Assembly: GCA_012964275.1 (NCBI GenBank)
Contig: DTUG01000136.1
Location: forward strand, 1 to 42,048
Source: Fidelibacterota bacterium
Lineage (GTDB): Bacteria; Fidelibacterota; Marinisomatia; Marinisomatales; UBA1611
Direction: 5' to 3'
DNA length: 42,048 nt
In this document: one piece after another, positions 4,929 to 39,343 of the stretch
Numbering within the stretch: the stretch's first letter is position 1
How the letters are laid out: the number at the start of each line of letters is the position of its first letter
Made by a program: the position numbers and the translations under genes
Notes under the pieces: generated by a model
The model's database searches: none
The model's input: the letters and a program-made list of their open reading frames with translations, nothing else
Told to the model about the DNA's origin: nothing

Positions 4929-6240
4929 AAAAGGTGTAATTCCCAATCAGGAGCCTTTAGTTAGCGTAGGAATTCATCTGCCTCAAGACAAATTCAATGC
5001 CACGACTATTTCATTCACTGATCCAAAACTGTTTGAAATTACCATAAATGGCAATCCAATATCGATCCAATCTGAATTAAAACTTAAAGTCAAGGATGGA
5101 TATATAGAAAATGAGGCAGCAAGTATTGTAAATATTTCCCAATTATCCATATTAAGAAAAGATCAATGTCTATCTGAGAACCAAGGACTTATTATTCATT
5201 CCGTAGTTGCCGGAAGAGGCTTTCATTGGCAGAAAGAAATATCAGTTCAATTACCAGGACATGTTATAATAGAGGTTCGAGATGACTTTCTATTTACAGT
5301 AAACGAAGTACCACTGGAACAATACCTCATTTGTGTTGCTACATCGGAAATGAGTGCTAATTGCCCCGATGCATTATTGGAAGCCCAAACCATTGCAGCT
5401 CGTTCCTGGGTTTTAGCAGCATCAGAGAAAAAACATGCTGACCTTGGCCTGGATGCTTGTAATGATGATTGCTGCCAGCGTTACCAAGGTATCGGTAGCC
5501 GATCGCCATCAGCAAAAAAGGCATCATTAAGCACTCGAGGAAAGGTCTTAATAGTTAATGAACAAATATGCGATACCCGATATTCTAAGTGCTGTGGTGG
5601 CAGAACAGAAGACAATGAATTGACTTGGAAAACTGAACAGAAATCGTACCTACGATCGGTTTTTGATGGTCCTGAAGAAATAAAAAATAATTTATCCAAT
5701 GAAAATGTTGTGAAATCCTGGATTGAGTCACAACACGGTTGTTATTGCGGACCAAAATATGTATCTGCCAATGATATAAATGAATACCTAGGGGAAGTTG
5801 ATAAAATAGATAATTATTACCGCTGGTCGGTGCATTACACCCAAAGAGAAATTGTAAATCTTATTTCAGAAAAGACCGGGAATTACTTTGATTTCATTTC
5901 AGCCATGATACCTATTCTCAGAGGCAAATCGGGGCGAATTATGGAACTCAGAATTGATGGTATTGTGAATGGTGATAATTCTAGTATCATGCTTAAATCA
6001 GAATATGAAATCCGTAGAGTGCTCCACCCTGATTTTTTATATAGTTCTGCATTTATCATTGAAACAAATTCAAGCGTAGGCAAAGAGCAATTACAGTTCA
6101 CTCTGCACGGCGCTGGATGGGGTCATGGTGTAGGCTTATGCCAGATCGGTGCTTTGGGAATGGCTTTAGCTGGCTATGATTCAAAGACCATTTTAGCTCA
6201 TTATTATCAGTCATCAGAATTGATAAATATTTATGATTGA
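4921..6240 (+). CDS. SpoIID/LytB domain protein (lytic transglycosylase / amidase-enhancer family)
   Basis: LEQYLICVATSEMSANCPDALLEAQTIAARSW, CNDDCCQRYQG and GHGVGLCQIGALGMA are characteristic SpoIID/LytB motifs. Confidence 0.75.
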   Translation: MLEKGVIPNQEPLVSVGIHLPQDKFNATTISFTDPKLFEITINGNPISIQSELKLKVKDGYIENEAASIVNISQLSILRKDQCLSENQGLIIHSVVAGRGFHWQKEISVQLPGHVIIEVRDDFLFTVNEVPLEQYLICVATSEMSANCPDALLEAQTIAARSWVLAASEKKHADLGLDACNDDCCQRYQGIGSRSPSAKKASLSTRGKVLIVNEQICDTRYSKCCGGRTEDNELTWKTEQKSYLRSVFDGPEEIKNNLSNENVVKSWIESQHGCYCGPKYVSANDINEYLGEVDKIDNYYRWSVHYTQREIVNLISEKTGNYFDFISAMIPILRGKSGRIMELRIDGIVNGDNSSIMLKSEYEIRRVLHPDFLYSSAFIIETNSSVGKEQLQFTLHGAGWGHGVGLCQIGALGMALAGYDSKTILAHYYQSSELINIYD

Positions 6241-24250: not shown

Positions 24251-25567
24251 ATGGCGAAAGCTTTGCACCAGATTGAGCCCGGAACTGCCTGTACGATTAA
24301 AACCACAGGTCAAGGGGGCGAGTTAAAGAAAGTTTTCTATTTTCCTACCAAATATGAAGTGCAATTAAACACCGGCGAAATCCATCATTATACATCACAT
24401 GAAGTCATTTTTGAAGGATTTGAACATCCTGAAGTCAAATTAAAGACCCCTGAAATACCCCATGCTGGAATTGGAGATAAATGGTCTTCATGGTCCCCAT
24501 TTATAGCCCGAAGCGAAATCAAACACCATTTTTCCACGACTAAAGAAATCATGTGGAAAATGATTACAAATCTGGACACATATAATATATGGTTCGTAGG
24601 AATCCAGCGTGCTTTACCAATTCTAAACTCAGACCGCTATGTTCATCAGTTTTCCTTTGACAAGTTTACTCTAGAACCAGGGGCGTTTTTTAAAATTCGT
24701 CCTGCATCTCTGGCACCCTATTTTAAATGCAGAGTTATGACCATTGAGAAAGAGAAAGAATTCGGGTTTGAATTCAGAACCACACCATTTTACAAAGAAT
24801 ATATTTCATTCAAGATTGATGAATCAAAGAAAGGTGTCTGGGTTACGTGCAGAAGAACTTCTAAGGGAATTTTTTCTCTATTATCTCTGTATAAATGGAA
24901 CAGTCGCAAATCAATGATTTTGCAGCTACTATCCAATATTATACCTGAGGTTAACTTTGATAAAGATAAGGATGATTTAAGTACAGATAATGGAACAGCT
25001 TCACAATGGATTGGATTTGCTGCGCGCGAAGATTACATCAATTATGCTGTTAACATGGGGTTGAAAGGGGATATGGATATTATTAATTCTATCTCGGATA
25101 AACCTACCCGCGGCAAAGCAAAAGCAGCTTTGGTTCGTGCCAAACGTACCGGAGAATCTCCGCCAATGCCGGAGAAGCCCAAAGGCGGAGTATCGCCAGC
25201 CGAAGGAAGCACTAAAACCGGTTTAAGCGGTGAACCGCTTATTGCTTTTGTTGTTAACAAAGCTCTAGATGGGGATATGGACCCCCTCAATGCCATAGCA
25301 GAGAAAGTCACCCGCGGCAAAGCAAAAGCACTGCTTGTGAAAATCAAACGGGGTTCAGCAGAACGACCGGCAATGCCTGAACTTCCTTCGCATGATCAAG
25401 AAACTAGTCTTGTAACTCCAGAAGAATCTGAAGAACAGCTTATGGAACGACTTATCGCAAAGGGTCTGGAAGGTGATATGGAAGAGATTAATGCTCTAGA
25501 TAACAAGGCATTACGGGGAAAAATTAAAGCTGCTATCGTCAAAGAAAAACGAGCTCAAAAAAAATGA
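24251..25567 (+). CDS. Hypothetical 438-aa protein: possible SRPBCC/START-like core followed by three ~45-aa basic helical repeats
   Basis: First gene of the Rieske/cyt b operon. C-terminal repeats: GLKGDMDIINSISDKPTRGKAKAALVRAKR / ALDGDMDPLNAIAEKVTRGKAKALLVKIKR / GLEGDMEEINALDNKALRGKIKAAIVKEKR. Confidence 0.6.
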   Translation: MAKALHQIEPGTACTIKTTGQGGELKKVFYFPTKYEVQLNTGEIHHYTSHEVIFEGFEHPEVKLKTPEIPHAGIGDKWSSWSPFIARSEIKHHFSTTKEIMWKMITNLDTYNIWFVGIQRALPILNSDRYVHQFSFDKFTLEPGAFFKIRPASLAPYFKCRVMTIEKEKEFGFEFRTTPFYKEYISFKIDESKKGVWVTCRRTSKGIFSLLSLYKWNSRKSMILQLLSNIIPEVNFDKDKDDLSTDNGTASQWIGFAAREDYINYAVNMGLKGDMDIINSISDKPTRGKAKAALVRAKRTGESPPMPEKPKGGVSPAEGSTKTGLSGEPLIAFVVNKALDGDMDPLNAIAEKVTRGKAKALLVKIKRGSAERPAMPELPSHDQETSLVTPEESEEQLMERLIAKGLEGDMEEINALDNKALRGKIKAAIVKEKRAQKK

Positions 25568-26066: not shown

Positions 26067-26957
26067 ATGGTTAACGTGGATAGTAGCAATCAAATATCTG
26101 GCAAGGAATCCAGCAGAATTTATGTTCTCTTTTATTCTTTTTTTTTGATTCCATTCATGATTGCAGTTTTTGGAGCGTTATTCTTTTTACTCTTTCGTTT
26201 TATTACCTTTGAAACAAATAGTGCTGAAGATCTTTTAAACCAGGTTAAGGTTGGATCAGCTTCGAAACGATGGCAGTCAGCTTTTGAATTAGCCAAAATA
26301 TTAAATAACCCAGATCTGGTTCCGTTAAGCAACTCATTCAAAGATCAGATGATCTCGGCATACCAGCGTTCTATCCATGACGATCCTCTGGTCAGGTCAT
26401 ATCTTGCTATGGCTATGGGTGCTACAAGAGATACTACTTATGGATCAACCTTGCTGAATGGCCTTAATGATGATAACCTCGAATCTCAAATAGCTGCGAT
26501 CCAGTCCGTAGGACTAATCGGTTACTCGCCGGCTGTCCCAGAATTGAAGGATATCACGATCAGATCAGAATCTCATAGTGAACGCCTGGCTGCCACAATT
26601 GCTCTGGGAATGATTGGTGATCAGACATCTATCCCGCATTTAACCAGTTTATTAGACGATGAAGAACCCAACATTCGCTGGGACGCAGCAGTCGCTCTCG
26701 CCAAGATGGGCAATAATTCCGGAGTTTCCATCATTGCAAGTCTATTGGATCGAGAATACCTCAACCAATTCAAGGAAGTTGATGAAATTGAGAAAAAACA
26801 AGTCTTGATGGTAGCCATACAGGTATCATCTCTACTTGTAGATCAACGATTCAAATCAAAACTGATTACCCTAGCTGAAACTGATGTGGATCTGAGTATT
26901 CGAGATGCAGCAATTAAAACCCTGGAAAAAAAGTATAGTGCTTCAATAACGTCTTAA
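26067..26957 (+). CDS. Membrane-anchored HEAT/PBS-lyase-type repeat protein
   Basis: N-terminal TM (IYVLFYSFFLIPFMIAVFGALFFLLF) followed by 5-6 HEAT-like repeats: DPLVRSYLAMAMGATRD, ESQIAAIQSVGLIG, ERLAATIALGMIGD, EPNIRWDAAVALAKMGN, DLSIRDAAIKTLEK. Confidence 0.65.
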   Translation: MVNVDSSNQISGKESSRIYVLFYSFFLIPFMIAVFGALFFLLFRFITFETNSAEDLLNQVKVGSASKRWQSAFELAKILNNPDLVPLSNSFKDQMISAYQRSIHDDPLVRSYLAMAMGATRDTTYGSTLLNGLNDDNLESQIAAIQSVGLIGYSPAVPELKDITIRSESHSERLAATIALGMIGDQTSIPHLTSLLDDEEPNIRWDAAVALAKMGNNSGVSIIASLLDREYLNQFKEVDEIEKKQVLMVAIQVSSLLVDQRFKSKLITLAETDVDLSIRDAAIKTLEKKYSASITS

Positions 26958-26958
26958 T

Positions 26959-27516
26959 ATGAGTGAAAATAAACAAGCACCACGTGCTGCGGTTGGTAGT
27001 AGTACAACATCACCAGGGTCCGATAATAATGATATTCGCAGACGTGGGTTTTTCAGATGGCTTGCTTTAGGCTGGCTTGCATTTGCGGCAGCAACTGGCG
27101 GATTTTTCATTGTCATTATACGATTTCTCTATCCGAATGTATTATTCGAGCCTCCTCAAACGTTTAAGATTGGCTTTCCCGATGAATTTTCTCCAAACAG
27201 TGTTGATACGAGATTTAAAAAGAAACATAATGCCTGGGTCGTTCGAGATGACGAATCTATCTTTGCTCTTTCGACCACCTGTACACACCTTGGATGTACA
27301 CCTAACTGGCTTCTAACAGAAAACAAATTTAAATGCCCCTGTCATGGAAGCGGATTTAGAATAACTGGCATTAATTTTGAAGGACCAGCGCCCAGGCCCC
27401 TTGAAAGGTTCAAGATTGGACTATTAGATGACGGACAGATCCTGGTAGATAAAACAAAAAGCTATAAGTGGGAAAAAGGGGAGTGGGAAAATAAAGACTC
27501 ATTCCTAAAGGTATAG
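26959..27516 (+). CDS. Rieske [2Fe-2S] subunit of a cytochrome bc/b6f-type complex (Tat signal/anchor)
   Basis: Twin-arginine IRRRGFFRWLALG plus a TM segment. Cluster boxes CTHLGC and CPCHGSGF. Confidence 0.9.
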   Translation: MSENKQAPRAAVGSSTTSPGSDNNDIRRRGFFRWLALGWLAFAAATGGFFIVIIRFLYPNVLFEPPQTFKIGFPDEFSPNSVDTRFKKKHNAWVVRDDESIFALSTTCTHLGCTPNWLLTENKFKCPCHGSGFRITGINFEGPAPRPLERFKIGLLDDGQILVDKTKSYKWEKGEWENKDSFLKV

Positions 27517-27519
27517 AAT

Positions 27520-28314
27520 TTGGAAAAGCCTGATAATAAGAAACCATTGCTTGAACGAATGGGAGAGTCCCAGGTCTGGAAATCAATTATTCGATCCGGG
27601 GTTCCAAGAACAAGGCGTCAGCGCATGCATGCAATTCTTGGCAGTGTATTCTTGCACCTGCATCCAGCAAGGCTGCCAAAGCATGCGGTTAAAGTCGGTT
27701 ATACATGGTGTATGGGTGGGCTCTCGTTTTTTCTTTTTGTAAATCTGACAATCACTGGGATATTGCTCATGTTTTACTACCGACCGACAGTAGAATATGC
27801 ATTCACCGACATTATCGATCTTGCCGAACAGGTCCCTCTTGGTATAATGCGAGAACTACACCGCTGGACGGCGCATGCCATGGTTCTTATTGTATGGCTT
27901 CATATGGTAAGGGTTTTCATGACTGGGTCATATAAGCCGCCAAGAGAATTTAACTGGGGTGTGGGTGTGATTCTGATGACACTAACCCTGCTCCTATCAT
28001 TTACAGGATATTTGCTTCCCTGGGACCAGTTGGCCATTTGGGCTGTCACAGTTGGATCAAATATGGCTAGGGCAACACCTTTTCTTGGTCATGAGGGGCC
28101 TGGAGCGGCTCTTTTAGCAATTGGTGATATAAATTTGATTCATGTGGGCTCTGATGTGCGCTTCGCACTGCTTGGAGGAAGGTTCGTAGGAGAAGCAACA
28201 CTCCTACGTTTTTATGTGTTACACTGTATTGGAATTCCTTTTATTGCCATGATATTCATGGCAGTCCATTTTTGGCGCATTCGTAAAGATGGTGGAATAT
28301 CGGGGCCATTATAA
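27520..28314 (+). CDS. Cytochrome b6-type subunit (N-terminal four-helix half of cytochrome b)
   Basis: Heme-ligand pairs LHRWTAHAMVLIVWLH and LHCIGIPFIAMIFMAVH. CMGG matches the b6 heme-ci Cys context. Ends ...RKDGGISGPL like cytochrome b6. TTG start. Confidence 0.85.
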   Translation: MEKPDNKKPLLERMGESQVWKSIIRSGVPRTRRQRMHAILGSVFLHLHPARLPKHAVKVGYTWCMGGLSFFLFVNLTITGILLMFYYRPTVEYAFTDIIDLAEQVPLGIMRELHRWTAHAMVLIVWLHMVRVFMTGSYKPPREFNWGVGVILMTLTLLLSFTGYLLPWDQLAIWAVTVGSNMARATPFLGHEGPGAALLAIGDINLIHVGSDVRFALLGGRFVGEATLLRFYVLHCIGIPFIAMIFMAVHFWRIRKDGGISGPL

Positions 28315-28329
28315 AACTTAGAAATTTTT

Positions 28330-29451
28330 ATGAGTTTAGCTGCACTTAAATCTGTAATTGATGCCATTTCTGCGCCAACTATCAGTTTTACAATATTAAC
28401 TGTGGCCTTCCCATTTTTCTTCCCACCAACAGACTGGTTTGAAAAAATCCATCGTAAACTGGGATTTTGGCGTTTATGGACAAAAAAGGGCGGCATAATT
28501 GGATTATTGCTGATTACAGCCTTTTTCGTATTAGGCTATTTTGATAAAAACTTCAATATCACACTAACAAAACCGGACAATTTCCCAATTGTTCTCTTGA
28601 TATACTCCATGTTTTTTTATATCTGGCTTGGAATGTATAAAGCCTATCAGAATGATGAACGATTGGATGCAGGATTAAAACCTAATGAATATAATGACCC
28701 TGATGACAAAGTCCTGGTTTGGCCAGATCTGGTCTATATCGAGTTCATAGCGCTTATCCTATTTCAAGTATTTCTTATCGTTTGGTCCATACTGGTGGCT
28801 GCACCAATAGAAGAACCGGCAAACCCAGCCGCAACGCCAAATCCATCTAAAGCTCCCTGGTATTTCCTGGGTCTGCAGGAAATGCTTGTCTATTTTGATC
28901 CATGGTTGGCGGGTGTCGTTTTTCCAACAATGATCATATTAGGACTAATGGCTATCCCTTATATGGATATTAATAAAAAGGGTGATGGTTACTATACATT
29001 TAAAGAAAGGCGAGTTGGCATTTTCATTTTTATGTACGGTTGGATCGTTCTATGGCTGTTTCTCATAGTTATCGGTACATTTTTCAGAGGACCTAATTGG
29101 AACTTTTTCGGACCTTTTGAATATTGGGATACACATAAGGTCGTAGCCCTAAATAATGTGAATTTATCCGAATTATTTTGGGTTAAGTTATTAGCAAAAG
29201 GACTACCCAGTAATATCCTAATAAGAGAATCTTTAGGTTTTATAGCGGTGTTTGTTTATTTGTTTGTTTTACCAGTAATTCTTATTAAAACAAAACTAAA
29301 AGGCACGTACGAAACTTATGGTCCAACAAGATTTGTAAGCCTAATGATATTTGGTCTGGGGATGCTTGCACTGCCAATTAAAATGTACCTGCGATGGGCA
29401 ATTAATCTGAAATATATTGTTGCAATCCCTGAATGGTTTTTCAATATCTAG
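28330..29451 (+). CDS. Extended subunit-IV-like protein (C-terminal half of cytochrome b) with extra TM helices
   Basis: VWPDLVYIEF ... NPSKAPWYFLGLQEMLVYF aligns with the subunit IV / cyt b PEWY region. At 373 aa it is far longer than the ~160-aa PetD. Confidence 0.75.
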   Translation: MSLAALKSVIDAISAPTISFTILTVAFPFFFPPTDWFEKIHRKLGFWRLWTKKGGIIGLLLITAFFVLGYFDKNFNITLTKPDNFPIVLLIYSMFFYIWLGMYKAYQNDERLDAGLKPNEYNDPDDKVLVWPDLVYIEFIALILFQVFLIVWSILVAAPIEEPANPAATPNPSKAPWYFLGLQEMLVYFDPWLAGVVFPTMIILGLMAIPYMDINKKGDGYYTFKERRVGIFIFMYGWIVLWLFLIVIGTFFRGPNWNFFGPFEYWDTHKVVALNNVNLSELFWVKLLAKGLPSNILIRESLGFIAVFVYLFVLPVILIKTKLKGTYETYGPTRFVSLMIFGLGMLALPIKMYLRWAINLKYIVAIPEWFFNI

Positions 29452-29472
29452 TTTAATTTTCAAGAAACGTAA

Positions 29473-32442
29473 ATGTTTAAAAACGACGAAAGATATTGGG
29501 ATATAAACCAACTAAATAAGTGGTTCGGGATTTCATCTCTGATATTTCTTATTTCTATGGTTTGGGTGTTTATTGATGACAATGATGATGAATTTAAAAT
29601 CTACCAGAAAGAGTTCAGAAAACTGCAGATCGAAATAACCCAAAAAAACCTGGATAAAGAATTAGGCGCTGTAAAAGATAGTAGGGAAAAATTCGAAGAA
29701 AGGCTTGTTGCTACGCAAGAGATTTACAGTTCACATGCTAATGAAGTTGCATCAATCGAAAAAGCGCTAAGCGACCTTCAAGGAAAATTTTATAAAGCAA
29801 ATATGAATTATCAGGGACAAAAAGCAAAAGTAGATGAAATTAAGTTTCTGGTCGAAAGCGAAAATGTTCATGAAAACTCCCACGAAAAGAGTCACCGGGA
29901 CAACTATAATAAAGCACTGGTAAAACTAGACGGATTAAAACTAACAAAAGAAAATTATGAAATAGAAATCAAAGATAATGAAGAAAAATTAAAAGGCTTG
30001 AATAATGAACTAAAAAAAAGCCAGGAAGAACTAGATTTTATACTCCGTGATGTTACCATAGCTGATGGCAAGTTAATATCATTAGATAGGTCGAGAATGA
30101 GTTTTCTAAATAGAATCGGTGATATTGTCAGGGACTTACCAATTCTTGATTTTATGGACCCATACTACAAGGTCAATCAAATCGTCGTAAAGGATGTACA
30201 TTATGATGTGAACTTTACTACCATGCCGGTAGTAGACCGCTGTACAAGCTGCCATCTTGAAATTAGCAATCCTGATAATATTGATGCAGAACAGCCCTTT
30301 ACCACACACCCAGATCTGGATCTTTATCTCACAAGTTCTTCGCCGCATCCATTAGAGTCTTTTGGCTGTACATCGTGCCATGCAGGACGAAGCCGGGGTA
30401 CATCCTTTGTATCTTCCGCACACACACCAAACTCAACAGAGCAAAAACACGATTGGGAAGAAAAACACGATTGGGAAAAAATTCACCACTGGATGCAACC
30501 AATGTTCCCAAAAAGATATACACAGGCAAGCTGTTTCAAATGCCATATGAATACTAGTGATCTGGCTGGTGCAGAAAAATTAAACTTGGGGCTTACATTG
30601 GTGGATAAAGCAGGCTGCAATAGTTGCCATGTTGCTGGTAATTGGCGTTCTTCAGGCAAAACGGGTCCTGATCTCAGGAAAATTAATGAAAAGTTGAAAC
30701 CCGACTGGGTTGCCAAATGGATCAAGAACCCGCGAAGTTTTCGCTATAATACACGTATGCCAAGCATATTTGAGCAAGACAACCAAACAACAGAAAAAAT
30801 AGCCAAACGCAATATTAATGAAATTGCTTCTATAACTCACTATCTCTTCAACAATAAGCACCTTGATAATGGAAAAACAATCAATAAGTATCTGGGCAAT
30901 CCACAAAATGGTGAAAAAATATTTCAAACTGTCGGCTGCATGGGATGCCATATCAGCGAAACCGATGCATCGCTTGCTCCATCACCAACAACATTTTCTA
31001 ATTTGACCAAACTACAAGGGCCGAACCTGGTTGGAATGGGATCGAAGGTATCCGCTGAATGGCTCTATAATTGGCTTAAGAATCCACATGATTATATGGC
31101 TTCTACCCGCATGCCAAACTTGCGGCTTAGTGATCAAGAAGCTAAAGATCTTACTGCTTTCCTGCTGGATAGCAGGATTTATGAATTTGATAAATTAGAA
31201 ACACTAGAGTTGGATACGATTGTCTTAAATGAACTAACTGTGGATTGGCTACGAAAAATGAATCCAGAGAAATTCGCTGTTGCAAAAGCATCAAAAATGT
31301 CAACAAAAGAAAAATTAGCCTTTGTTGGAGAAAAAAGTATTCGACATTATGGCTGTTTTGGTTGCCACAACATTGATGGATTCATGGATGCCAAACCTAT
31401 TGGAACTGAAATTACTTATCAAGGCTCCAAAACTTTAGATAAGTTGGACTTTGGTTTGTTGCATGACATAGAACATACAAATTTCGCTTGGATCGAAAAC
31501 AAGTTGCGTACCCCGCGAATATATGATAGAGGTAAGGAAAGTGATCCACTTGATCTCTTAAAGATGCCTAACTTTTATTTCACTGAAGATGAAATTGAAG
31601 CTATCACAACAGCTATTTTAGCATTTAATACAGATGGGGTCGGCAAAGATCTTCTAGCACATGAAAACCTACCCAAATATAACAAAGATGGTCATCGACT
31701 AGTGAAAAAGTACAATTGTCAGGGGTGTCATCTAATAGAGAATCGCGGCGGACAGTTAGTGGAACAAATTGGGCCTGCTGAATATGGTCCCCCAAACCTA
31801 AATACAGAAGGAAAAAAAGCGAACCCTAACTGGCTTCTTAGCTTTTTCAATAAACCAATAACCATTCGCCCCAACATTCAGGTTAGAATGCCAAGCTTTC
31901 ACCAAATCAACGATAAGGAGTGGGATACTATCATTAAATATTTTCAAGGTATTGATGATGAAAATATCGGTTACAGAGCTGATTATATTGTAAACGAAAA
32001 AAGTACTGAATTTCATGCTGGGGAAAAACTCCATGAATTAGGAGCTTGTAATAACTGCCACTTCTACGGGACAGAATTTCCAATACAAACCGCATCAACA
32101 TGGGCAGCAAACTTAGCCATGACAAAGGTGCGCCTTAATCCAGATTGGGTAGTAGAATGGCTAAGGGAACCTCAGGATATTATGCCCGGCACCAAAATGC
32201 CGGCACCCTACATACCCACTTCAGATATTCTGGATGTGGATGATGCAGAAGCTACCTGGGGCAACAATCTTGTAAAATTGAGCGGTAATCAGGATGCTAT
32301 GCTGGAAGGATTGCGGGATTATTTGTGGACCATTGATGGGAAAATAGATATCTCTCAGGAGGTGAAGGATTATTTCGAAGAGAACGGATATGATTTTTCC
32401 GATGCAGACGATGAAGATGAATGGGATGAGGAAGATTGGTAA
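29473..32442 (+). CDS. Membrane-anchored octaheme c-type cytochrome with N-terminal coiled coil and acidic C-terminal tail
   Basis: Eight CxxCH motifs: CTSCH x2, CFKCH, CNSCH, CMGCH, CFGCH, CQGCH, CNNCH. The last five are each followed by (R/K)MP, as in class-I cytochrome c. N-terminal TM (WFGISSLIFLISMVWVFI) plus ~170 aa of K/E-rich heptad-like sequence. Ends DADDEDEWDEEDW. Confidence 0.85.
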   Translation: MFKNDERYWDINQLNKWFGISSLIFLISMVWVFIDDNDDEFKIYQKEFRKLQIEITQKNLDKELGAVKDSREKFEERLVATQEIYSSHANEVASIEKALSDLQGKFYKANMNYQGQKAKVDEIKFLVESENVHENSHEKSHRDNYNKALVKLDGLKLTKENYEIEIKDNEEKLKGLNNELKKSQEELDFILRDVTIADGKLISLDRSRMSFLNRIGDIVRDLPILDFMDPYYKVNQIVVKDVHYDVNFTTMPVVDRCTSCHLEISNPDNIDAEQPFTTHPDLDLYLTSSSPHPLESFGCTSCHAGRSRGTSFVSSAHTPNSTEQKHDWEEKHDWEKIHHWMQPMFPKRYTQASCFKCHMNTSDLAGAEKLNLGLTLVDKAGCNSCHVAGNWRSSGKTGPDLRKINEKLKPDWVAKWIKNPRSFRYNTRMPSIFEQDNQTTEKIAKRNINEIASITHYLFNNKHLDNGKTINKYLGNPQNGEKIFQTVGCMGCHISETDASLAPSPTTFSNLTKLQGPNLVGMGSKVSAEWLYNWLKNPHDYMASTRMPNLRLSDQEAKDLTAFLLDSRIYEFDKLETLELDTIVLNELTVDWLRKMNPEKFAVAKASKMSTKEKLAFVGEKSIRHYGCFGCHNIDGFMDAKPIGTEITYQGSKTLDKLDFGLLHDIEHTNFAWIENKLRTPRIYDRGKESDPLDLLKMPNFYFTEDEIEAITTAILAFNTDGVGKDLLAHENLPKYNKDGHRLVKKYNCQGCHLIENRGGQLVEQIGPAEYGPPNLNTEGKKANPNWLLSFFNKPITIRPNIQVRMPSFHQINDKEWDTIIKYFQGIDDENIGYRADYIVNEKSTEFHAGEKLHELGACNNCHFYGTEFPIQTASTWAANLAMTKVRLNPDWVVEWLREPQDIMPGTKMPAPYIPTSDILDVDDAEATWGNNLVKLSGNQDAMLEGLRDYLWTIDGKIDISQEVKDYFEENGYDFSDADDEDEWDEEDW
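30445..30480 (+). repeat. In-frame 18-nt tandem duplication (KHDWEE/KHDWEK) inside the octaheme cytochrome gene
   Basis: aaacacgattgggaagaa followed by aaacacgattgggaaaaa; 17/18 identical. Confidence 0.8.
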
Positions 32443-32471: not shown

Positions 32472-32498
32472 GCCCCTACAATTGTAGGGGCTTTTTTT
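32472..32498. terminator. Rho-independent (bidirectional) terminator after the Rieske/cyt b operon
   Basis: Stem GCCCCTAC, loop aatt, stem GTAGGGGC, followed by T7 and preceded by A7. Lies 30 nt after the stop at 32442. Confidence 0.85.
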
Positions 32499-32507
32499 GG
32501 AACAGAG

Positions 32508-32615: not shown

Positions 32616-33476
32616 TTATAATTTCATCAAAACTTCTATAGCATTTTTTACGTCACCGGCTCTCCAGACATCTCCCGGCCAAGAGCCAACCACTTCCCGG
32701 TTTGGTCCAATTAAAACGGAGCGAAGTGTATGGCCAATCTTCCCTTCCTCAATGCCCCAAAAGTCACACCCTGATTGTTTCGCCAATCGGTAAACATCTT
32801 CAATGTGATTTGTACTGGACCACACCGTCCAATTGTCATAGCCTGAAATCGCCGGACCATAAAAGTCCTTTAATATTCCAGGACTGTCATAAAGATAATC
32901 AAAACTGACCACAATGAACTCAACTTCATCGCTAGATTGAAATGCCTTTGCAAGTACCTCGTTTTTTATGACTACTGCTGGACACATAGTGGGCATCGGA
33001 CAGCGAGTAAAAATGAAAGATAAAAACCGGTATTTCCCATCGGAGTCAGACAATCGTACCAATGAACTGTCCAGATTTAATAAAGTCACATCATCAATGG
33101 TCTCGCCGATCTTTCTTTCAGCATATTCTCCATCTTTAAAAAAACCATTCTCAGTCTCAGGAAGTTGCCCCTTACCAATAACCCTGAAATTCTTTGCATA
33201 AGTAACTGTATCCGCCCAGATAAATTCAAAGTGGATGCTGTCGCCGATAGAAAGTCCATCGAAATCTTTCAAGTCTTTTAAGTTAAAAGGCATGACCATG
33301 GGCATCATTAGGTCAGGAATTGTATCATGGTCCACCACTACAATTTTTTCACCTGGTTTCAAATCGACAATAACCCCTTTTACGGGGTATGTCTTTACCG
33401 GATCAGAACAATGAATTCCAAATAAGGTAATCGCAAGGAATGACAGAAATCTTATTTGAATCATGTTCAAGCACAA
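32616..33476 (-). CDS. Fusion of a CusF-like Cu(I)-binding domain and a SCO1/SenC thioredoxin-fold copper chaperone
   Basis: N-terminal signal peptide. VKGVIVDLKPGEKIVVVDHDTIPDLMMPMVMPF is a CusF-type H...M.M motif. FIFTRCPMPTMCP is the SCO CxxxC motif, followed by ...GHTLRSVLIG. The start may be the internal ATG at 33464. Confidence 0.7.
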   Translation of the reverse strand: MCLNMIQIRFLSFLAITLFGIHCSDPVKTYPVKGVIVDLKPGEKIVVVDHDTIPDLMMPMVMPFNLKDLKDFDGLSIGDSIHFEFIWADTVTYAKNFRVIGKGQLPETENGFFKDGEYAERKIGETIDDVTLLNLDSSLVRLSDSDGKYRFLSFIFTRCPMPTMCPAVVIKNEVLAKAFQSSDEVEFIVVSFDYLYDSPGILKDFYGPAISGYDNWTVWSSTNHIEDVYRLAKQSGCDFWGIEEGKIGHTLRSVLIGPNREVVGSWPGDVWRAGDVKNAIEVLMKL

Positions 33477-33525: not shown

Positions 33526-34233
33526 TTATTTTTTTTTAGGACGTGTAAAGGTAAAATCTTTAGTTACAGCTTCATCACCTACATTAACAGTGGTTGTCAG
33601 TTGATTTTTTTTAAATTTCTCCTGCCAGCAAACCATTTCATAGGTCCCAGCTGGTATATTTTCGATTAAATAATTACCATTTGTATCTGTGACAGCGAAG
33701 TAAGGGTGATCTAAAACTAAGGCCCAACTTTTCATCCATGGATGTACGTCACATTTGATGTAAAATGGATCTTCTGGTTTTTCAAATGTTGATTTTCTCT
33801 CTTTCACAACTTTTGGCATTGCAAAATTAAACTCCTTATTTATCTTCGGCATGGCGTGGATATTGTGCAGAGTTAGATCGCTATTTTTTATTAATAGTTC
33901 CTGACCAGCCTGCATGCCGAAAACGTGGGGAATGTAAATGCATCCTTTTTGGTCAATAACAGCAGGTTCTTCAGAGATTCCGCCAGAATACTCAACATTT
34001 CTGAGCCATATCAAACATTCTGCCAAATCCCCAGCATCATTGACTTTGAAACTTTCAGTATATACCGGTCCGGAGTGAGCAGAACCACAGACAGGATCGG
34101 CATCCATTCTTAATGTTTTTTTCTTAGGCGGCTTACCATCAAACTTTACATGGCCTTTTAACGAACCGGCATGTAAATAAATAGATATTGTCGAAAATAA
34201 CAGTACCGTTGCAAGAAACCTGATTAGATTCAT
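33526..34233 (-). CDS. Secreted cupredoxin-like (type-1 copper) protein with C-terminal CarboxypepD_reg-like beta-sandwich
   Basis: Signal peptide. IKNSDLTLHNIHAMP and CDVHPWM (C-x2-H-x2-M) resemble a His/Cys/His/Met blue-copper ligand set. TDTNGNYLIENIPAGTYEM is CarboxypepD_reg-like. Lys-rich (PPKKKT, RPKKK). Confidence 0.55.
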   Translation of the reverse strand: MNLIRFLATVLLFSTISIYLHAGSLKGHVKFDGKPPKKKTLRMDADPVCGSAHSGPVYTESFKVNDAGDLAECLIWLRNVEYSGGISEEPAVIDQKGCIYIPHVFGMQAGQELLIKNSDLTLHNIHAMPKINKEFNFAMPKVVKERKSTFEKPEDPFYIKCDVHPWMKSWALVLDHPYFAVTDTNGNYLIENIPAGTYEMVCWQEKFKKNQLTTTVNVGDEAVTKDFTFTRPKKK

Positions 34234-34319: not shown

Positions 34320-34337
34320 AAAACCACTAGTGGTTTT
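34320..34337. promoter_or_regulatory. Perfect 18-bp palindrome, candidate operator in a divergent promoter region
   Basis: AAAACCACTAGTGGTTTT reads identically on both strands. Lies between the cupredoxin gene (-) and the membrane-protein/ferredoxin/cox genes (+). Confidence 0.5.
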
Positions 34338-34848
34338 TGGTCTTAATTTTCATCAACAAACAAGGTTGCAAATGTGGTTATTCATGATCATTTGTTATAT
34401 CATGATGGCCAGTAATTTTCTCAACATTTTACTGACCGGATTGATGGGGTATTTTAAATTTACTGTTTGGGGTGCAACCCATGCCCGGTTCGCAATTTTT
34501 ACTATCCTAGTATTTATTCTAACAGAAACTTTAGTGATGTTCTTTTTTATAGCTACTGGAAAAAGTATAAAACAGATGATACAGGACGGCCGCGGGGATA
34601 CCAAACATTGGCAGCGAGTTAAAAAGGTCAAGAAATGGGTTTTTCCGCAGATCATTCTTACAATAATACTGGTTGGAGCTGTATTTATCCATGGTGGAGT
34701 TGTTGACAACAACCTAGCCCTTTCCTGGCTTCACGGTCCCTTATTTCTACTTGCATTTTTCCAGCACATGTGGTCTCTAGTTATAAAGAACCGCTCATTC
34801 AGAGAACAAGTCAATATAGCCGCAGAAATATCTAAAGAATTGGAATAG
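34330..34848 (+). CDS. Hypothetical 4-TM membrane protein with His residues in or near TM segments
   Basis: 172-aa track ORF with a GTG start inside the palindrome. The ATG at 34372 (MWLFMIICY...) is a more likely start. No family recognised. Confidence 0.5.
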   Translation: MVFGLNFHQQTRLQMWLFMIICYIMMASNFLNILLTGLMGYFKFTVWGATHARFAIFTILVFILTETLVMFFFIATGKSIKQMIQDGRGDTKHWQRVKKVKKWVFPQIILTIILVGAVFIHGGVVDNNLALSWLHGPLFLLAFFQHMWSLVIKNRSFREQVNIAAEISKELE

Positions 34849-34850
34849 CT

Positions 34851-35009
34851 ATGTACTATATGTCTAAAGGGTTAGAACTCCTGGGAATGATCGTGATTGT
34901 AACCGGTTTTATTGTGAAATTTCCTGGTTTAATGGACCCAAAACTGCTCATAGTAGGCTTAGCATGCTTTGGTGCAGGATGGATCATAGAAAAATACACC
35001 CTTCAATAA
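34851..35009 (+). CDS. Unannotated 52-aa two-TM micro-protein
   Basis: Manual translation: MYYMSKGLELLGMIVIVTGFIVKFPGLMDPKLLIVGLACFGAGWIIEKYTLQ*. Starts 2 nt after the preceding stop. Confidence 0.4.
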   Translation: MYYMSKGLELLGMIVIVTGFIVKFPGLMDPKLLIVGLACFGAGWIIEKYTLQ

Positions 35010-35071
35010 ATTTCTTTCTATCATTTTAAACATTATATCTTAACTTCGCCGTCTAATTTCTTCCGTTATCC

Positions 35072-35395
35072 ATGGCAATATATAATCATTTAAAAGGCAT
35101 ACCTGAACTGCCGGATTTACCACATATAAAAAAGAAACGCCCCAAGGAAATGGCAGTGGTTGATGAAGACAACTGCACCGGCTGCCTAGCGTGTGTACCC
35201 TTCTGTCCAGTAGATTGTATAGAATCCGTTCCAAAGGAAAAATACGACATCCCAATACCACCTGTGCAAGTTCGCTTTAATGAATGTATCGGCTGTAAGG
35301 TATGTGCCCGGGTCTGCACAAAAATGACCTGGGATGCAATTCGAATGATTAATATAGATACCTTTGAAGAACTATATAATATTACGATTGACTAA
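35072..35395 (+). CDS. 2x[4Fe-4S] dicluster ferredoxin
   Basis: CTGCLACVPFCP and CIGCKVCARVC (C-x2-C-x2-C-x3-C twice). 107 aa, no signal peptide. Confidence 0.85.
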   Translation: MAIYNHLKGIPELPDLPHIKKKRPKEMAVVDEDNCTGCLACVPFCPVDCIESVPKEKYDIPIPPVQVRFNECIGCKVCARVCTKMTWDAIRMINIDTFEELYNITID

Positions 35396-35415: not shown

Positions 35416-37128
35416 CTGAGCTCTGATTCACACCACCAGGAAGGTTTCATACGAAAGTATATTTTTTCAATTGACCATAAGATAATTGCTATTCAGTATG
35501 GTGTCACTTCCCTGCTGTTTCTTTTTTTTGGTTTCTCCCTGATGATGGTCATGCGCTGGCAGTTGGCCTACCCGGAGACCGTAATTCCATTTCTTGGATA
35601 TCTGTTTGGCGAAGCAGGTATTATGCTTCCGGAGCAGTATAATTCCCTAGGAGCTATGCATGGCACTATTATGATTTTTCTTGGGGTAGTTCCGCTTGCA
35701 GTTGGCGCCTTTGGGAATTATGTGGTTCCACTCCAGATCGGAGCACCAGATATGGCTTTCCCCAAACTGAATGCCGCCAGCTACTGGAGTTATTTTGTTG
35801 GCGGAGTCATCATGGTGGCCAGTTTTTTCATGCCCGAAGGCGCTGCCCGATCCGGGTGGACATCTTACCCACCTTTATCTATTTTTGAATCTGGACAAAC
35901 TATGTGGCTCATTGGCATGGTGTTTTTGATTACATCTTCCTTGCTAGGTTCAATGAATTTCATTACAACAATCATACAACTTCGCGCACCGGGGCTTACC
36001 TGGATGAGACTACCTATTTTCGTATGGGCTCAATTTGTATCATCTTTTTTATTGGTATTGGCATTCCCCCCGCTCGAAGCAGCAGCAATATTGCAATTAA
36101 TGGACCGTATCGCAAGTACAAGTTTCTTTATGCCCAGCGGTTTGGTCTACGCTGGAGCGCCCGTTGATGTATCGGGATATGGCTCACCATTGCTCTGGCA
36201 ACATCTCTTCTGGTTCCTGGCTCATCCCGAAGTATATGTTTTGATTTTACCTGCCATGGGTATTGTGGGCGAAATATTAGCCAATAACACGCGAAAGCCA
36301 ATCTGGGGATATAAATCTATTGTTTTTGCCCTAGTTATCCTTGGATTTCTCTCTTTTATTGTTTGGGCACACCATATGTTCTTGACTGGCATGGGTCAGG
36401 TTATGAGCAGTTTTTTCCAGACCACTACAATGATCATTTCTATTCCATCCGTCATTATTTTGACAGCTTATTTCATGTCCCTGTGGGGCGGCTCAATACG
36501 GTTTAATACCCCCATGCTGTTTGCACTGGCATTTCTGCCAATGTTTGGAATTGGCGGCCTTACCGGCCTGCCGCTAGGATTAGCAGCCGCAGATATCTAT
36601 CTTCATGACACCTATTATGTGATTGGCCATTTTCATTATGTTGTTGCACCAGGTACCCTTTTTGCGTTATTTGCAGGCATCTACTATTGGTTTCCCAAGA
36701 TCACCGGTAGAAAAATGAATGAGGCATTAGGCAAGCTTCATTTCTGGCCATCATTAATTTTCATGAACGGTGTTTTTATGCCCATGTTTATTCAAGGACT
36801 GGCGGGAGTGTCAAGAAGGTTATATGATGGCGGAGAGATGTATGCCCACGCTTCAGATGTACTGCAATGGAATGAATTTATGTCAATTTCTGCATTTTGC
36901 CTTGGTGCAGCCCAGATTCCATTTATTATTAATTTCTTCATGTCCATATTCGTTGGTGAAAAAGCGGATAGAAATCCATGGAAGTCCACCACGGTTGAAT
37001 GGGCAGCTCCATCTCCGCCTATAGGACACGGAAATTTTGACACTAAAATAATCGTTCACCGTGAAGCCTATGAATACGGTGTGCCAGACGCGAAAAATGA
37101 TTTCACTCCCCAAACGGAAGAAACCTGA
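35416..37128 (+). CDS. ctaD: Cytochrome c oxidase subunit I (A-type heme-copper oxidase); non-canonical start
   Basis: Motifs: GAPDMAFPKLN, WFLAHPEVYVLILP, WAHHMF, HDTYYVIGHFHYV. The conserved helix-I region (RKYIFSIDHKIIAIQYG...) is in frame upstream of the first ATG (35542), and no ATG/GTG/TTG follows the in-frame stop at 35389. Start placed at CTG 35416, with GGAG 7 nt upstream; ATA 35413 is an alternative. Confidence 0.85.
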   Translation: MSSDSHHQEGFIRKYIFSIDHKIIAIQYGVTSLLFLFFGFSLMMVMRWQLAYPETVIPFLGYLFGEAGIMLPEQYNSLGAMHGTIMIFLGVVPLAVGAFGNYVVPLQIGAPDMAFPKLNAASYWSYFVGGVIMVASFFMPEGAARSGWTSYPPLSIFESGQTMWLIGMVFLITSSLLGSMNFITTIIQLRAPGLTWMRLPIFVWAQFVSSFLLVLAFPPLEAAAILQLMDRIASTSFFMPSGLVYAGAPVDVSGYGSPLLWQHLFWFLAHPEVYVLILPAMGIVGEILANNTRKPIWGYKSIVFALVILGFLSFIVWAHHMFLTGMGQVMSSFFQTTTMIISIPSVIILTAYFMSLWGGSIRFNTPMLFALAFLPMFGIGGLTGLPLGLAAADIYLHDTYYVIGHFHYVVAPGTLFALFAGIYYWFPKITGRKMNEALGKLHFWPSLIFMNGVFMPMFIQGLAGVSRRLYDGGEMYAHASDVLQWNEFMSISAFCLGAAQIPFIINFFMSIFVGEKADRNPWKSTTVEWAAPSPPIGHGNFDTKIIVHREAYEYGVPDAKNDFTPQTEET

Positions 37129-37139
37129 GGAAAGATATT

Positions 37140-37739
37140 TTGGAAATCCCTTATATAGTTGACGAGCGTGAAGATACTGGTTTAATCAATTCCAAACTAG
37201 GGATCTGGATTTTTCTGGCATCGGAAGTGATGCTTTTTGGCGGGCTATTTTCCGCCTATGTTTTCCTGAGAATGGCTGCCCCTCCGGGAGATTTTGCCCA
37301 CTGGGGCGCCGAGCTGAATGTACCCCTGGCCACCCTTAATACCCTGGTGTTGATTACATCTAGTGTCACCATGGTTATGTCATGGGCATCCCTAAAACTC
37401 AAGGATTTTGAAAAATATAAAATATATATGGCGCTAACATTATTATGCGCAGCTATTTTCCTTGTGGTAAAATACTTTGAGTATACCGCCAAGTTTCACC
37501 ATGATATTTTTCCATCGTCCAGTACCTTCATGGCAATCTATTTCACGCTTACGGGGCTTCATGGTCTGCATATTATTGGTGGTATGATTGTGATAACATA
37601 TTTATGGATGCCCTTTGGAAATAAAATATGGCATACCAATCCTGAACATTTTACGAACCGCGTTGAGGTAATAGGATTATACTGGCACTTTGTGGATCTC
37701 GTTTGGATCTTCCTGTTCCCTGTACTCTACCTGATTTAG
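37140..37739 (+). CDS. ctaE: Cytochrome c oxidase subunit III
   Basis: 199 aa, 5 TM: GIWIFLASEVMLFGGLFSAY, YFTLTGLHGLHIIGG, GLYWHFVDLVWIFLFPVLYL. TTG start after GAGGAAAG. Confidence 0.85.
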   Translation: MEIPYIVDEREDTGLINSKLGIWIFLASEVMLFGGLFSAYVFLRMAAPPGDFAHWGAELNVPLATLNTLVLITSSVTMVMSWASLKLKDFEKYKIYMALTLLCAAIFLVVKYFEYTAKFHHDIFPSSSTFMAIYFTLTGLHGLHIIGGMIVITYLWMPFGNKIWHTNPEHFTNRVEVIGLYWHFVDLVWIFLFPVLYLI

Positions 37740-37748
37740 GATAAAATA

Positions 37749-38051
37749 ATGAGTGACCACGATACAGTATCAATCCAAGAACATATTCGAGTCTATTTGA
37801 CGGTATTTGGTGCACTAGCTGTTTTAACTGTTACTACAGTATTAGCTTCGTATCTGGACATCAGTACATCAGAAGCAATATTCCTAGCGTTAGTTATTGC
37901 ATCGGTGAAAGGATCCCTCGTTGCAGGCTACTTCATGCACCTGATCTCGGAAAAAGCTACAATCACATGGATACTGATGATGACAGCGTTATTTTTTTTC
38001 GTACTGATGTTTCTGCCATTAATGTCTATAACAGATCAAGTCAATATCTAA
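37749..38051 (+). CDS. Prokaryotic cytochrome c oxidase subunit IV family protein
   Basis: 100 aa, 3 TM. HIRVYLTVFGALAVLTVTTV ... VIASVKGSLVAGYFMHL matches the COX4_pro pattern. Confidence 0.7.
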   Translation: MSDHDTVSIQEHIRVYLTVFGALAVLTVTTVLASYLDISTSEAIFLALVIASVKGSLVAGYFMHLISEKATITWILMMTALFFFVLMFLPLMSITDQVNI

Positions 38052-38249
38052 ATGATATCACTTAAAACATTTCATTTTTTTTTCATTGCTGTTTCTACCA
38101 TATTGACCTGCTGGTACGGAGTATTTGAAATGACTACTCCTACGAATCCAGGTTTTATTTCATTACTGCTTGCCGGGTGTTCTTTTGCAGCAACAGCAGG
38201 TTTATGCATTTATGGTCTATCAATTCTTAAAAAATTCAAGAATCTATAA
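38052..38249 (+). CDS. Hypothetical 65-aa two-TM protein within the oxidase operon
   Basis: The ATG directly abuts the preceding TAA. Two hydrophobic helices. Confidence 0.5.
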   Translation: MISLKTFHFFFIAVSTILTCWYGVFEMTTPTNPGFISLLLAGCSFAATAGLCIYGLSILKKFKNL

Positions 38250-38254
38250 TAACT

Positions 38255-38488
38255 ATGAATAAAATCATTTCAATCTTCACTTTTACGTTAATTATGTTTT
38301 TTATTGCGGAACCAATACAGGCTTGTGCAACCTGCTATGGTGCTACCGACGCAGCAGCAACTGAGGGGCTGAATTGGGCTATTATTTCATTGCTGGGAAC
38401 AACCGGTGGTGTCTTAACCGGAATTATTATAGCCATCATTTCCATAGTGAAAAAGGCCGAAAAACACGGTAAAATAATTGAAAAATAA
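38255..38488 (+). CDS. Hypothetical 77-aa protein: signal peptide, short CxxC-containing periplasmic segment, TM anchor
   Basis: MNKIISIFTFTLIMFFIAEPIQA / CATCYGATDAAATEGLNW / AIISLLGTTGGVLTGIIIAIISIV / KKAEKHGKIIEK. Confidence 0.5.
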   Translation: MNKIISIFTFTLIMFFIAEPIQACATCYGATDAAATEGLNWAIISLLGTTGGVLTGIIIAIISIVKKAEKHGKIIEK

Positions 38489-38500
38489 AAAAGGATAATT

Positions 38501-39343
38501 TTGCTAGGACTACTTCAACACTTTGGTTTACCTGTTAATGCATCAATTCAGGGGGAACATATTGATAATGCCAATGTACTGATGCACTGGCTGATGCTGA
38601 TATTATTTATTGGTTGGGGTGCATTCTTTATTATAAGTCTGGTCAGATTTCGAGCGTCAAAAAACAAGACTTCAGATTATACCGGTGTGAAATCTCATAT
38701 ATCTTCACTGCTTGAAGCTGCGGTTGCCATCATTGAGATCATTGCTTTATTCGGTTTTTCATATCCGGTTTGGGCTTACAGGGTGAATGAAGTTCCTGAC
38801 ACCAGGGACGCTGAAAATATCAGGGTAGTAGCCCAGCAATTTGCCTGGAATATTCATTATCCCGGCAAAGATGGCTTATTTGGAACCACACGATCTGATC
38901 TAGTAGATGAACAGGAAAACCCGATTGGTCTTGATCGTGGCAGTCCAAACGCTTCCGATGATTTTTTCACTATCAATCAACTCCATATTCCAGCGCACAA
39001 AAAGATACGAATTGATTTAACCACTAAAGATGTAATTCATAATTTTAAATTACCTGAGTTACGTGTTTCGCAGGATGCTATCCCCGGCATGGTGATCCCG
39101 GTACATTTCGAGGCTACTATGACATCAGAAGAATTTTTAGAAACCGTCAAAGGCACCCCTAGAGAAGGCAAGGGTTTAGAAATTTCATGTGCCCAGCTTT
39201 GTGGTTTAGGCCACTACCGTATGAAGGGTTTTTTAACAATACATGATCAAGATGGATATCGTGTCTGGCTGGATGAAGAAGCAGAATATCTGCTTGAATC
39301 CGGTGATGATGAAGATGATTGGGGCGACGACGAAGATTGGTAA
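38501..39343 (+). CDS. ctaC: Cytochrome c oxidase subunit II (CuA domain, no fused cytochrome c) with acidic C-terminal tail
   Basis: Two N-terminal TM segments. CuA ligands DVIHNFKLPEL and CAQLCGLGHYRM. Ends ESGDDEDDWGDDEDW. TTG start after AAGGA. Confidence 0.85.
   Translation: MLGLLQHFGLPVNASIQGEHIDNANVLMHWLMLILFIGWGAFFIISLVRFRASKNKTSDYTGVKSHISSLLEAAVAIIEIIALFGFSYPVWAYRVNEVPDTRDAENIRVVAQQFAWNIHYPGKDGLFGTTRSDLVDEQENPIGLDRGSPNASDDFFTINQLHIPAHKKIRIDLTTKDVIHNFKLPELRVSQDAIPGMVIPVHFEATMTSEEFLETVKGTPREGKGLEISCAQLCGLGHYRMKGFLTIHDQDGYRVWLDEEAEYLLESGDDEDDWGDDEDW

Follow-up and report, generated by a model that had tools for sequence, protein, structure and literature searches.

A respiratory gene cluster of Candidatus Marinimicrobia (SAR406, Neomarinimicrobiota) encodes two unrelated proteins that end in the same acidic, tryptophan-terminated peptide; the organism is assigned from the sources named for proteins identical or nearly identical to its own. 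The cluster lies on contig DTUG01000136.1 of assembly GCA_012964275.1 (42,048 nt), which was analyzed at full length and is referred to here as the window. One of the two proteins, an octaheme c-type cytochrome, belongs to a Rieske/cytochrome b complex as its c subunit; the other is CoxII, the CuA subunit of an aa3-type oxidase. Among orthologs, both families reach the shared consensus W-(G)-D-D-(E/D)-D-W-COOH. Judging from sequence, we suggest with a probability of roughly 0.4 that the tails serve to capture, by electrostatics, one basic carrier shared by both complexes; the leading candidate is an amicyanin-like cupredoxin of the same cluster.

The shared tail in the window

Both tails are encoded on the forward strand, at 32401-32442 for the octaheme cytochrome (DADDEDEWDEEDW plus stop) and at 39302-39343 for CoxII (GDDEDDWGDDEDW plus stop). 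These sequences and positions, and the 12 nt common to both gene ends, had been reported in a first-pass annotation of the window and proved exact. A six-frame scan for stop-to-stop open reading frames (ORFs) of at least 60 aa gave 187 candidates. Within the last 13 residues, the octaheme cytochrome has ten acidic residues and CoxII nine, while the next best ORF has five, bearing out the earlier statement that no other protein of the window carries such a tail. The two are also the only real window genes ending in W.

The 12-mer GAAGATTGGTAA occurs in the window solely at the ends of these two genes. Given window codon usage (GAA 79%, GAT 78%), two genes that both end in EDW-stop would be expected to share these 12 nt ~17% of the time, and the likeness therefore lies at the protein level. 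Together with synonymous variation in orthologs, this expectation rules out recent recombination or gene conversion as the origin of the nucleotide identity. The tails are neither chance nor compositional drift.

Conservation in orthologs

Unique ortholog tails were pooled from proteins and loci, giving 58 for CoxII and 132 for the octaheme cytochrome. Their alignment, which the first-pass annotation had proposed as a check, showed conservation in both families; a lack of conservation, which that annotation had named as refuting its proposal, is thereby rejected. Counting from the carboxy terminus, position −1 is W in 56/58 CoxII and 125/132 octaheme tails, −2 is D in 58/58 and 125/132, −3 is E or D in 58/58 and 129/132, and −4 is D in 56/58 and 118/132. 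Most tails have a second W five to six residues upstream of the terminal one, often followed by G, and the last 15 positions are devoid of basic residues in 55/58 CoxII and 127/132 octaheme tails. The form (D/E)n-W-(G)-DD(E/D)DW-COOH describes 125 of the 132 octaheme tails, which vary in length and contain one to three (D/E)nW units.

Nearly all of the closest 120 CoxII clusters listed (68-100% identity) end in DDWGDD(E/D)DW, and an acidic run plus W terminates 116 of the 120 octaheme clusters listed (52-100% identity). A few loci from species genomes at about 48-52% identity also keep their tails. At the conserved tail Asp positions, orthologs use GAT and GAC about equally; this synonymous variation points to purifying selection that acts on the peptide, not to a DNA sequence handed down unchanged. 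The proposal that electron-donating and electron-accepting complexes share a short linear motif is thus upheld, with the same position-specific consensus in both families.

Specificity and phylogenetic reach

To gauge specificity, we collected related metagenome loci by octaheme alignment (80 loci, 977 kb, octaheme 57-98% identical) and scanned their 3,036 six-frame ORFs of at least 50 aa for an acidic tail with W within the last three residues. The tail was present on 74 of 75 octaheme cytochromes, with the lone exception ending in DDWDDEDY, and on 25 of 25 CoxII proteins; wherever a locus held both genes, both were tailed (25/25). None of the other ORFs in these 977 kb (about 2,900) carried an acidic W tail. 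A species-level scan covering one genome per GTDB species with the pattern W-x-[DE]4-W-TAA returned at least 119 loci. Among the matches listed, at least 25 are CoxII or octaheme cytochromes in Marinimicrobia/Neomarinimicrobiota-labeled genomes or marine bins, and no family besides these two appears among the matches listed from genomes with those labels.

The specificity of the tail is therefore established for these gene neighborhoods and for the strict pattern W-x-[DE]4-W-TAA. Within the DNA scanned, the absence of other cases among the 187 window ORFs and the about 2,900 ORFs of related loci rules out genome-wide low-complexity composition as the source of the tails. The first-pass annotation had named such termini being common on unrelated proteins of the genome as an outcome that would overturn its proposal; this is rejected only for the DNA of the window and the related loci.

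The uniqueness that the same annotation implied was, on the other hand, overstated, as several unrelated proteins of prokaryotes also end in an acidic tail with Trp, and more distant CoxII relatives have weaker acidic-aromatic ends. Phylogenetic reach was assessed with representatives of 50%-identity CoxII-related clusters (35-62% identical to the query), 91 of which had an assessable C terminus. An acidic end with terminal W was found in 9/91 and an acidic end with an aromatic residue within the last four positions in 18/91 (SGDDFW, DPFWE, DPFR); a further 5/91 were acidic without an aromatic residue and 59/91 had unrelated ends. These counts identify the full motif as a lineage-specific elaboration, possibly built on an older acidic-aromatic end tendency of this CoxII subfamily. 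Contigs with tail-less or variant CoxII relatives were too short for their gene neighborhoods to inform. The tailed CoxII of one lineage (L203) ends in DEDDDWNDEW; at 5037-5643 of that locus, a second CoxII-like frame, seemingly split or frameshifted, lies upstream of CoxI and ends in GEEGEEVW.

Comparable ends on unrelated proteins came from several sources. In Nostocales (L007, L020, L038, L056, L073, L113), a DnaK/Hsp70 paralog of ~700 aa bears a long, low-complexity C-terminal extension ending in SRPSYQDNWDDDDDW, an acidic Trp-COOH tail on a cytoplasmic chaperone. Single-transmembrane proteins of ~60 aa from Woeseiaceae and other Gammaproteobacteria (L018, L028, L035, L043, L057, L062, L095, L111) end in SKLKEW(E/N/Q)DDDEW. 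Small proteins of Prevotella (L003, L013, L016, L032, L046, L064, L081, L094, L109) and Ruminococcus (L015, L047, L076, L080) end in (S/G)xWDD(D/E)(D/E)W, those of Ruminococcus with repeated GFxSSWDDDDD units. In a single case, a Treponema sp. metagenome-assembled genome (L019, 6241-6264), a 325-aa putative lipoprotein ends in GDDDWGDDEDW, near-identical to the Marinimicrobia CoxII tail. Archaeal ORFs of 30-80 aa consisting of nearly nothing but Glu/Asp and Trp (for example, EEEWEEEEELWEEFEEEWEEEEEW) are putative genes that recur in Thermoproteales, Desulfurococcales, Thermococcus and Bathyarchaeota (L009, L021, L029, L030, L031, L033, L042, L049, L065, L070, L072, L074, L075, L077, L082, L117).

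Tail-bearing proteins and location of the tails

The octaheme cytochrome (29473-32442, forward strand; eight CxxCH motifs) is a 989-aa protein with an N-terminal transmembrane helix and several of its CxxCH motifs in class I cytochrome c-like domains. It is encoded in one operon (26959-32442) with proteins matching the Pfam families of a Rieske protein and cytochrome b, which together identify a Rieske/cytochrome b complex with a multiheme c subunit. The Rieske protein, the two cytochrome b parts and the octaheme cytochrome thus constitute a predicted quinol-oxidizing donor complex. The N-terminal portion of the cytochrome (residues 1-240; 29473-30200) begins with an invariant cytoplasmic NDERYWDI...LNKWF motif followed by the transmembrane helix. 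A charged, coiled-coil-like region of ~200 residues with a weak SMC-like match precedes the first heme motif, an unusual arrangement among c subunits of Rieske/cytochrome b complexes.

CoxII (38501-39343, forward strand) has 280 aa and belongs to COX2/CoxB, with two transmembrane helices, a cupredoxin domain and a C-terminal helix followed by the tail. It matches PF00116, reaches 109 bits against TIGR02866 (below the 147.7-bit cutoff) and aligns with Paracoccus CoxII (E = 5e-15). Family membership is further supported by the invariant CuA ligands H180 and C230-x3-C234-x3-H238-x2-M241, the CuA motif reading C-A-Q-L-C-G-L-G-H-Y-R-M. At Q113-F114 (38837-38842; AQQFAW), the position aligned with the canonical electron-entry Trp (bovine W104 or Paracoccus W121 in HQWYW) is Phe or Tyr in this CoxII subfamily. 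Phe occupies this site in 114/120 close homologs and 124/138 matched representatives, as is also reported for ba3 oxidases. A tie between this Phe and the terminal Trp of the tail would be pure speculation.

An AlphaFold2 model of CoxII, computed from a 29-sequence alignment and of low confidence (mean predicted local distance difference test (pLDDT) score of 62), comprises two N-terminal helices (19-53 and 67-96), a beta-rich domain and one helix near the C terminus (250-268). With pLDDT values <50 and no secondary structure over residues 267-280, the CoxII tail is predicted to be flexible. Structures of Paracoccus and Rhodobacter CoxII align up to the C-terminal helix only and offer no template for the tail. 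In its low pLDDT and its conservation, the tail qualifies as a disordered acidic segment with an aromatic residue at the free carboxy terminus, the type known from the C-terminal tail of the single-stranded DNA-binding protein (SSB-Ct).

Since heme c attachment and CuA assembly occur in the periplasm, the heme c and CuA domains, and with them both tails, are periplasmic. Each tail hangs directly on the domain expected to give or take electrons. The tails consist of 13-34 residues of D, E, G and W only, include no hydrophobic segment and fit none of the known C-terminal sorting signals considered (PEP-CTERM, LPXTG, GlyGly-CTERM, the C-terminal domain (CTD) of the type IX secretion system (T9SS) and the outer-membrane protein beta-signal). 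A genuine T9SS CTD is present on a neighboring 808-aa protein.

A candidate carrier

Between the two operons, on the reverse strand (33526-34233), lies a gene for a secreted 235-aa amicyanin-like protein, a candidate type-1 copper protein. It is syntenic in 56 related loci, a number limited by how far contigs extend. The protein has a signal peptide with a conserved AG(T/S)LKG junction and invariant H123, C161, H164 and M167 within LHNIH...YIKCDVHPWM. In a profile search, its best match among solved structures was amicyanin (E = 0.002); the 90 aligned residues keep the His and the C-x2-H-x2-M loop in register. The Joint Genome Institute annotation calls the protein 'plastocyanin'. Pfam recognizes only a C-terminal CarboxypepD_reg-like domain and no cupredoxin. 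As neither Pfam nor a Foldseek search returned a significant cupredoxin match, membership in this family is likely but not proven, and the product is best described as a likely periplasmic type-1 copper cupredoxin fused to a CarboxypepD_reg-like beta-sandwich.

The cupredoxin had been described in the first-pass annotation as Lys-rich, and its basic character holds well beyond the window. All 46 unique orthologs carry a net positive charge in their mature form (+1 to +14, mean +7). Basic stretches (GKxPKKKxLRMDADPVCG) are conserved, lysines lie on either side of the ligand loops, and the conserved lysines include K130, K133, K160 and K168. At its carboxy terminus (33529-33543, reverse strand), a polybasic RPKKK-COOH end, present as F(T/S/K)RPKKK in nearly all orthologs, forms a charge mirror of the acidic tails. 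The conserved cluster encodes no CxxCH protein besides the octaheme cytochrome, and the cupredoxin is its sole soluble redox protein. For one related bacterium of the FCB (Fibrobacteres-Chlorobi-Bacteroidetes) group, which lacks soluble monoheme cytochromes, the proposed carrier is of the plastocyanin type (PMC5317091). The cupredoxin at 33526-34233, suggested as an example of a partner in the first-pass annotation, has become a more plausible candidate through its synteny, signal peptide, ligand pattern, basic charge and standing as the only soluble redox protein of the cluster.

Proposed function and alternative explanations

In the model that we favor, both tails would be copies of one periplasmic motif, a disordered poly-Asp/Glu stretch with a D-D-(E/D)-D-W end and a free carboxylate. 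The octaheme copy would sit on the last heme domain, beside the electron-exit end of the Rieske/cytochrome b complex, and the CoxII copy beside the electron-entry CuA domain of the oxidase. Through long-range electrostatics, the two could capture the same positively charged mobile carrier, most likely the cupredoxin, while the terminal Trp may add a specific hydrophobic contact, for example with a patch around an exposed Cu-ligand His. The carrier would thereby stay concentrated at donor and acceptor and shuttle between them. That the tails bind at all, which partner they bind and what Trp contributes is inferred. The common consensus in two unrelated proteins, the co-occurrence in 25/25 loci and the predicted flexibility support capture of a shared carrier.

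Several observations weigh against this model. The absence of the tail from other proteins is established for cluster neighborhoods only, and in the L203/L204 lineage the oxidase cluster that encodes a tailed CoxII has neither an octaheme nor a cupredoxin gene nearby. For the cupredoxin model, Foldseek found no significant match (E ≥ 0.009; amicyanin probability 0.15-0.3; low-pLDDT ligand region). The AlphaFold2 model itself has a pLDDT of 76, which drops around the ligand loops and thus places the surface geometry beyond assessment. Across 41 loci, the acid content of the octaheme tail and the net charge of the cupredoxin show no significant correlation (Spearman 0.21, p = 0.19). The cupredoxin of the window is only mildly basic (isoelectric point 8.2, net +2 including the signal peptide), and polybasic C termini are not rare in this AT-rich genome.

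The tails might instead act as supercomplex glue, docking on a basic groove of the other or their own complex and joining the Rieske/cytochrome b/octaheme complex to the oxidase, so that CuA receives its electrons straight from the last heme and no mobile carrier is needed. A precedent is found in Actinobacteria, where bcc-aa3 supercomplexes are obligate and pass electrons directly from c to CuA; the location of both tails at the presumed electron-transfer interface, their strict co-occurrence (25/25 loci) and the lack of an encoded soluble cytochrome c in the cluster would suit such an arrangement. We nevertheless regard it as unlikely, given that two tails of like charge would be expected to push apart at a common interface, that the proteins bearing them are themselves strongly acidic (net −38 and −20), that the cluster contains a conserved secreted cupredoxin and that a tailed CoxII is known with no octaheme gene next to it.

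A biogenesis or quality-control tag, which seems to us quite improbable, would have the acidic Trp-COOH end aid membrane-potential-driven export or folding of the C-terminal periplasmic domain, be read by a PDZ protease or chaperone-type factor or be removed on maturation. The exported Rieske, SCO/CusF and cupredoxin proteins of the same cluster do without a tail, the conserved cluster contains no candidate reader protein and the tails match no known sorting signal, with neither a transmembrane segment plus basic cluster nor a T9SS CTD. A tag would nonetheless agree with the periplasmic cofactor loading of both proteins and with the tails on unrelated periplasmic or membrane proteins such as the putative Treponema lipoprotein. 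Precedents are the C-terminal processing of CoxII in Paracoccus and Rhodobacter and the well-established principle that PDZ domains recognize the C-terminal residue. Lastly, the variable length and repeat number (1 to 3 (D/E)nW units), a low-complexity sequence expandable by slippage and the acidic non-Trp ends of distant CoxII relatives could point to a nonspecific polyanion that binds cations (Mg2+/Ca2+) or serves as solubility or anti-adhesion 'bristles' without a defined partner. A pure charge role, however, needs no fixed Trp at the carboxy terminus, whereas W at the end and D at −2 and −4 hardly vary in two unrelated families despite ~50% divergence, with the last 15 positions free of basic residues. 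Disfavored by the invariant terminal Trp, a nonspecific polyanion appears very improbable.

Returning to capture of a shared carrier, a stronger version, which we consider doubtful, would treat D-D-(E/D)-D-W-COOH as a dedicated periplasmic docking code that tethers the basic cupredoxin to the quinol-oxidizing complex and the oxidase, with the same tail elsewhere potentially making acidic Trp-COOH a general bacterial interaction motif. The cupredoxin would then be held through its Cu-site hydrophobic patch plus a Lys ring and/or the KKK tail. If true, such a code would imply a respiratory chain with a 'leashed shuttle' in a phylum that ranks among the most abundant uncultured ones of the deep ocean, and acidic Trp-COOH on the Nostocales DnaK paralog and on Woeseiaceae, Prevotella and Treponema proteins could mean a general, previously unrecognized interaction motif in bacteria.

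Comparison with known systems

Searches of the literature found no description of an acidic-Trp tail on CoxII, on multiheme cytochromes or in Marinimicrobia. Electrostatic docking in respiratory chains is an old concept, but one identical C-terminal linear motif on donor and acceptor complexes appears to be new. The closest functional parallel is cytochrome c, whose basic face docks on acidic surfaces of cytochrome c1 (with the hinge protein) and CoxII. There, as proposed here, donor (c1 with the hinge protein QCR6/UQCRH, or the acidic N-terminal domain of Paracoccus c1) and acceptor (CoxII) present negative clusters to one basic carrier, and these clusters adjoin the electron exit and entry cofactors in the periplasm or intermembrane space. 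Cytochrome c docking, however, uses a folded patch or a separate subunit, whereas in Marinimicrobia the two C termini share an identical linear motif whose final Trp is invariant, and the likely carrier would be a cupredoxin instead of cytochrome c.

In architecture, the tails resemble the SSB C-terminal tail (DDDIPF-COOH), which likewise combines a disordered acidic stretch, a terminal aromatic residue and a free carboxylate; tails of this type dock into basic-rimmed hydrophobic pockets of partner proteins. SSB is cytoplasmic, acts in DNA metabolism, ends in Phe rather than Trp and shares no homology, and the partner pocket of the Marinimicrobia tails is hypothetical. Eukaryotic acidic-Trp motifs (the WASP/Scar acidic region binding Arp2/3 and the 'W-acidic' motifs of kinesin light chain) also use Trp in D/E runs for docking, sometimes in tandem, but are cytosolic and not bound to the carboxy terminus; their likeness to the tails is chemical only. 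The SSB and eukaryotic comparisons are analogies, not homologies.

Cupredoxin shuttles are well represented by amicyanin with methylamine dehydrogenase (MADH) and cytochrome c551i, pseudoazurin with nitrite reductase, auracyanin with alternative complex III and plastocyanin with cytochrome f or an oxidase. In each, a small type-1 copper protein moves electrons between membrane or periplasmic complexes, the role proposed for the Marinimicrobia cupredoxin, and docks through a hydrophobic patch at the Cu-ligand His and surrounding charged residues. Unlike these shuttles, the Marinimicrobia protein has an extra CarboxypepD_reg-like domain and a polybasic tail, and its putative shuttle role is deduced from gene context.

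Marinimicrobia (SAR406) are abundant in the dark ocean and oxygen-minimum zones but have not been cultured, which leaves genes as the only source of knowledge on their respiratory chain. The shared motif nominates a specific carrier and offers a testable handle on how electrons pass from a non-canonical Rieske/cytochrome b/octaheme complex to an aa3 oxidase without soluble cytochrome c. It is easily searched for and synthesized. If the capture model is true, it would be a bacterial periplasmic case in which a short linear motif, in place of a surface patch on a folded domain, lets electron-transfer partners recognize each other.

Gene cluster and neighboring features

The donor operon continues upstream of the octaheme gene with genes for a cytochrome b C-terminal/subunit IV-like protein (28330-29451; PF00032), the N-terminal part of cytochrome b (27520-28314; PF00033) and the Rieske 2Fe-2S protein (26959-27516; PF00355), all on the forward strand. 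This order of Rieske, split cytochrome b (N and C parts) and octaheme genes is kept in related loci. Directly 3′ of the octaheme stop codon, a GC-rich perfect palindrome followed by a T-run (AGCCCCTACAATTGTAGGGGCTTTTTTT; 32472-32499) looks like an intrinsic terminator that would close the Rieske/cytochrome b/octaheme operon; it was not among the elements listed by a consensus scan.

Between the octaheme and cupredoxin genes, a protein combining CusF-like and SCO1/SenC-like parts is encoded on the reverse strand (32616-33476). It is probably a copper chaperone for CuA assembly; its gene is co-oriented with the cupredoxin gene and found in 68 related loci. Beyond the cupredoxin gene follow genes for a small membrane protein and a ferredoxin (34330-35395), the CoxI, CoxIII and CoxIV genes of the aa3-type oxidase (35542-38051, forward strand) and two small membrane proteins (38052-38488) upstream of CoxII. 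The synteny of CoxI, CoxIII and CoxIV holds in related loci. A CoxI start upstream of 35542 is probable because the stop-to-stop frame spans 578 aa.

A HEAT-repeat membrane protein (26067-26957) with PBS-lyase-type repeats and a membrane anchor is the conserved first gene product of the Rieske/cytochrome b operon (54 related loci). It was considered as a 'carboxylate-clamp' receptor for the tails and set aside as uniformly acidic (mean net −8 in 43 orthologs). A basic 438-aa protein (24251-25567) was likewise set aside as a partner because it has no signal peptide and is probably cytoplasmic. A family search with this protein gave no match. Conserved in 42 related loci, it contains three repeats of the form L(K/D/E)GDM(D/E)xxNxxxxKxxRGK(A/I)KAxxV+x+R, and its gene separates the Rieske operon from the genes for heme A synthesis.

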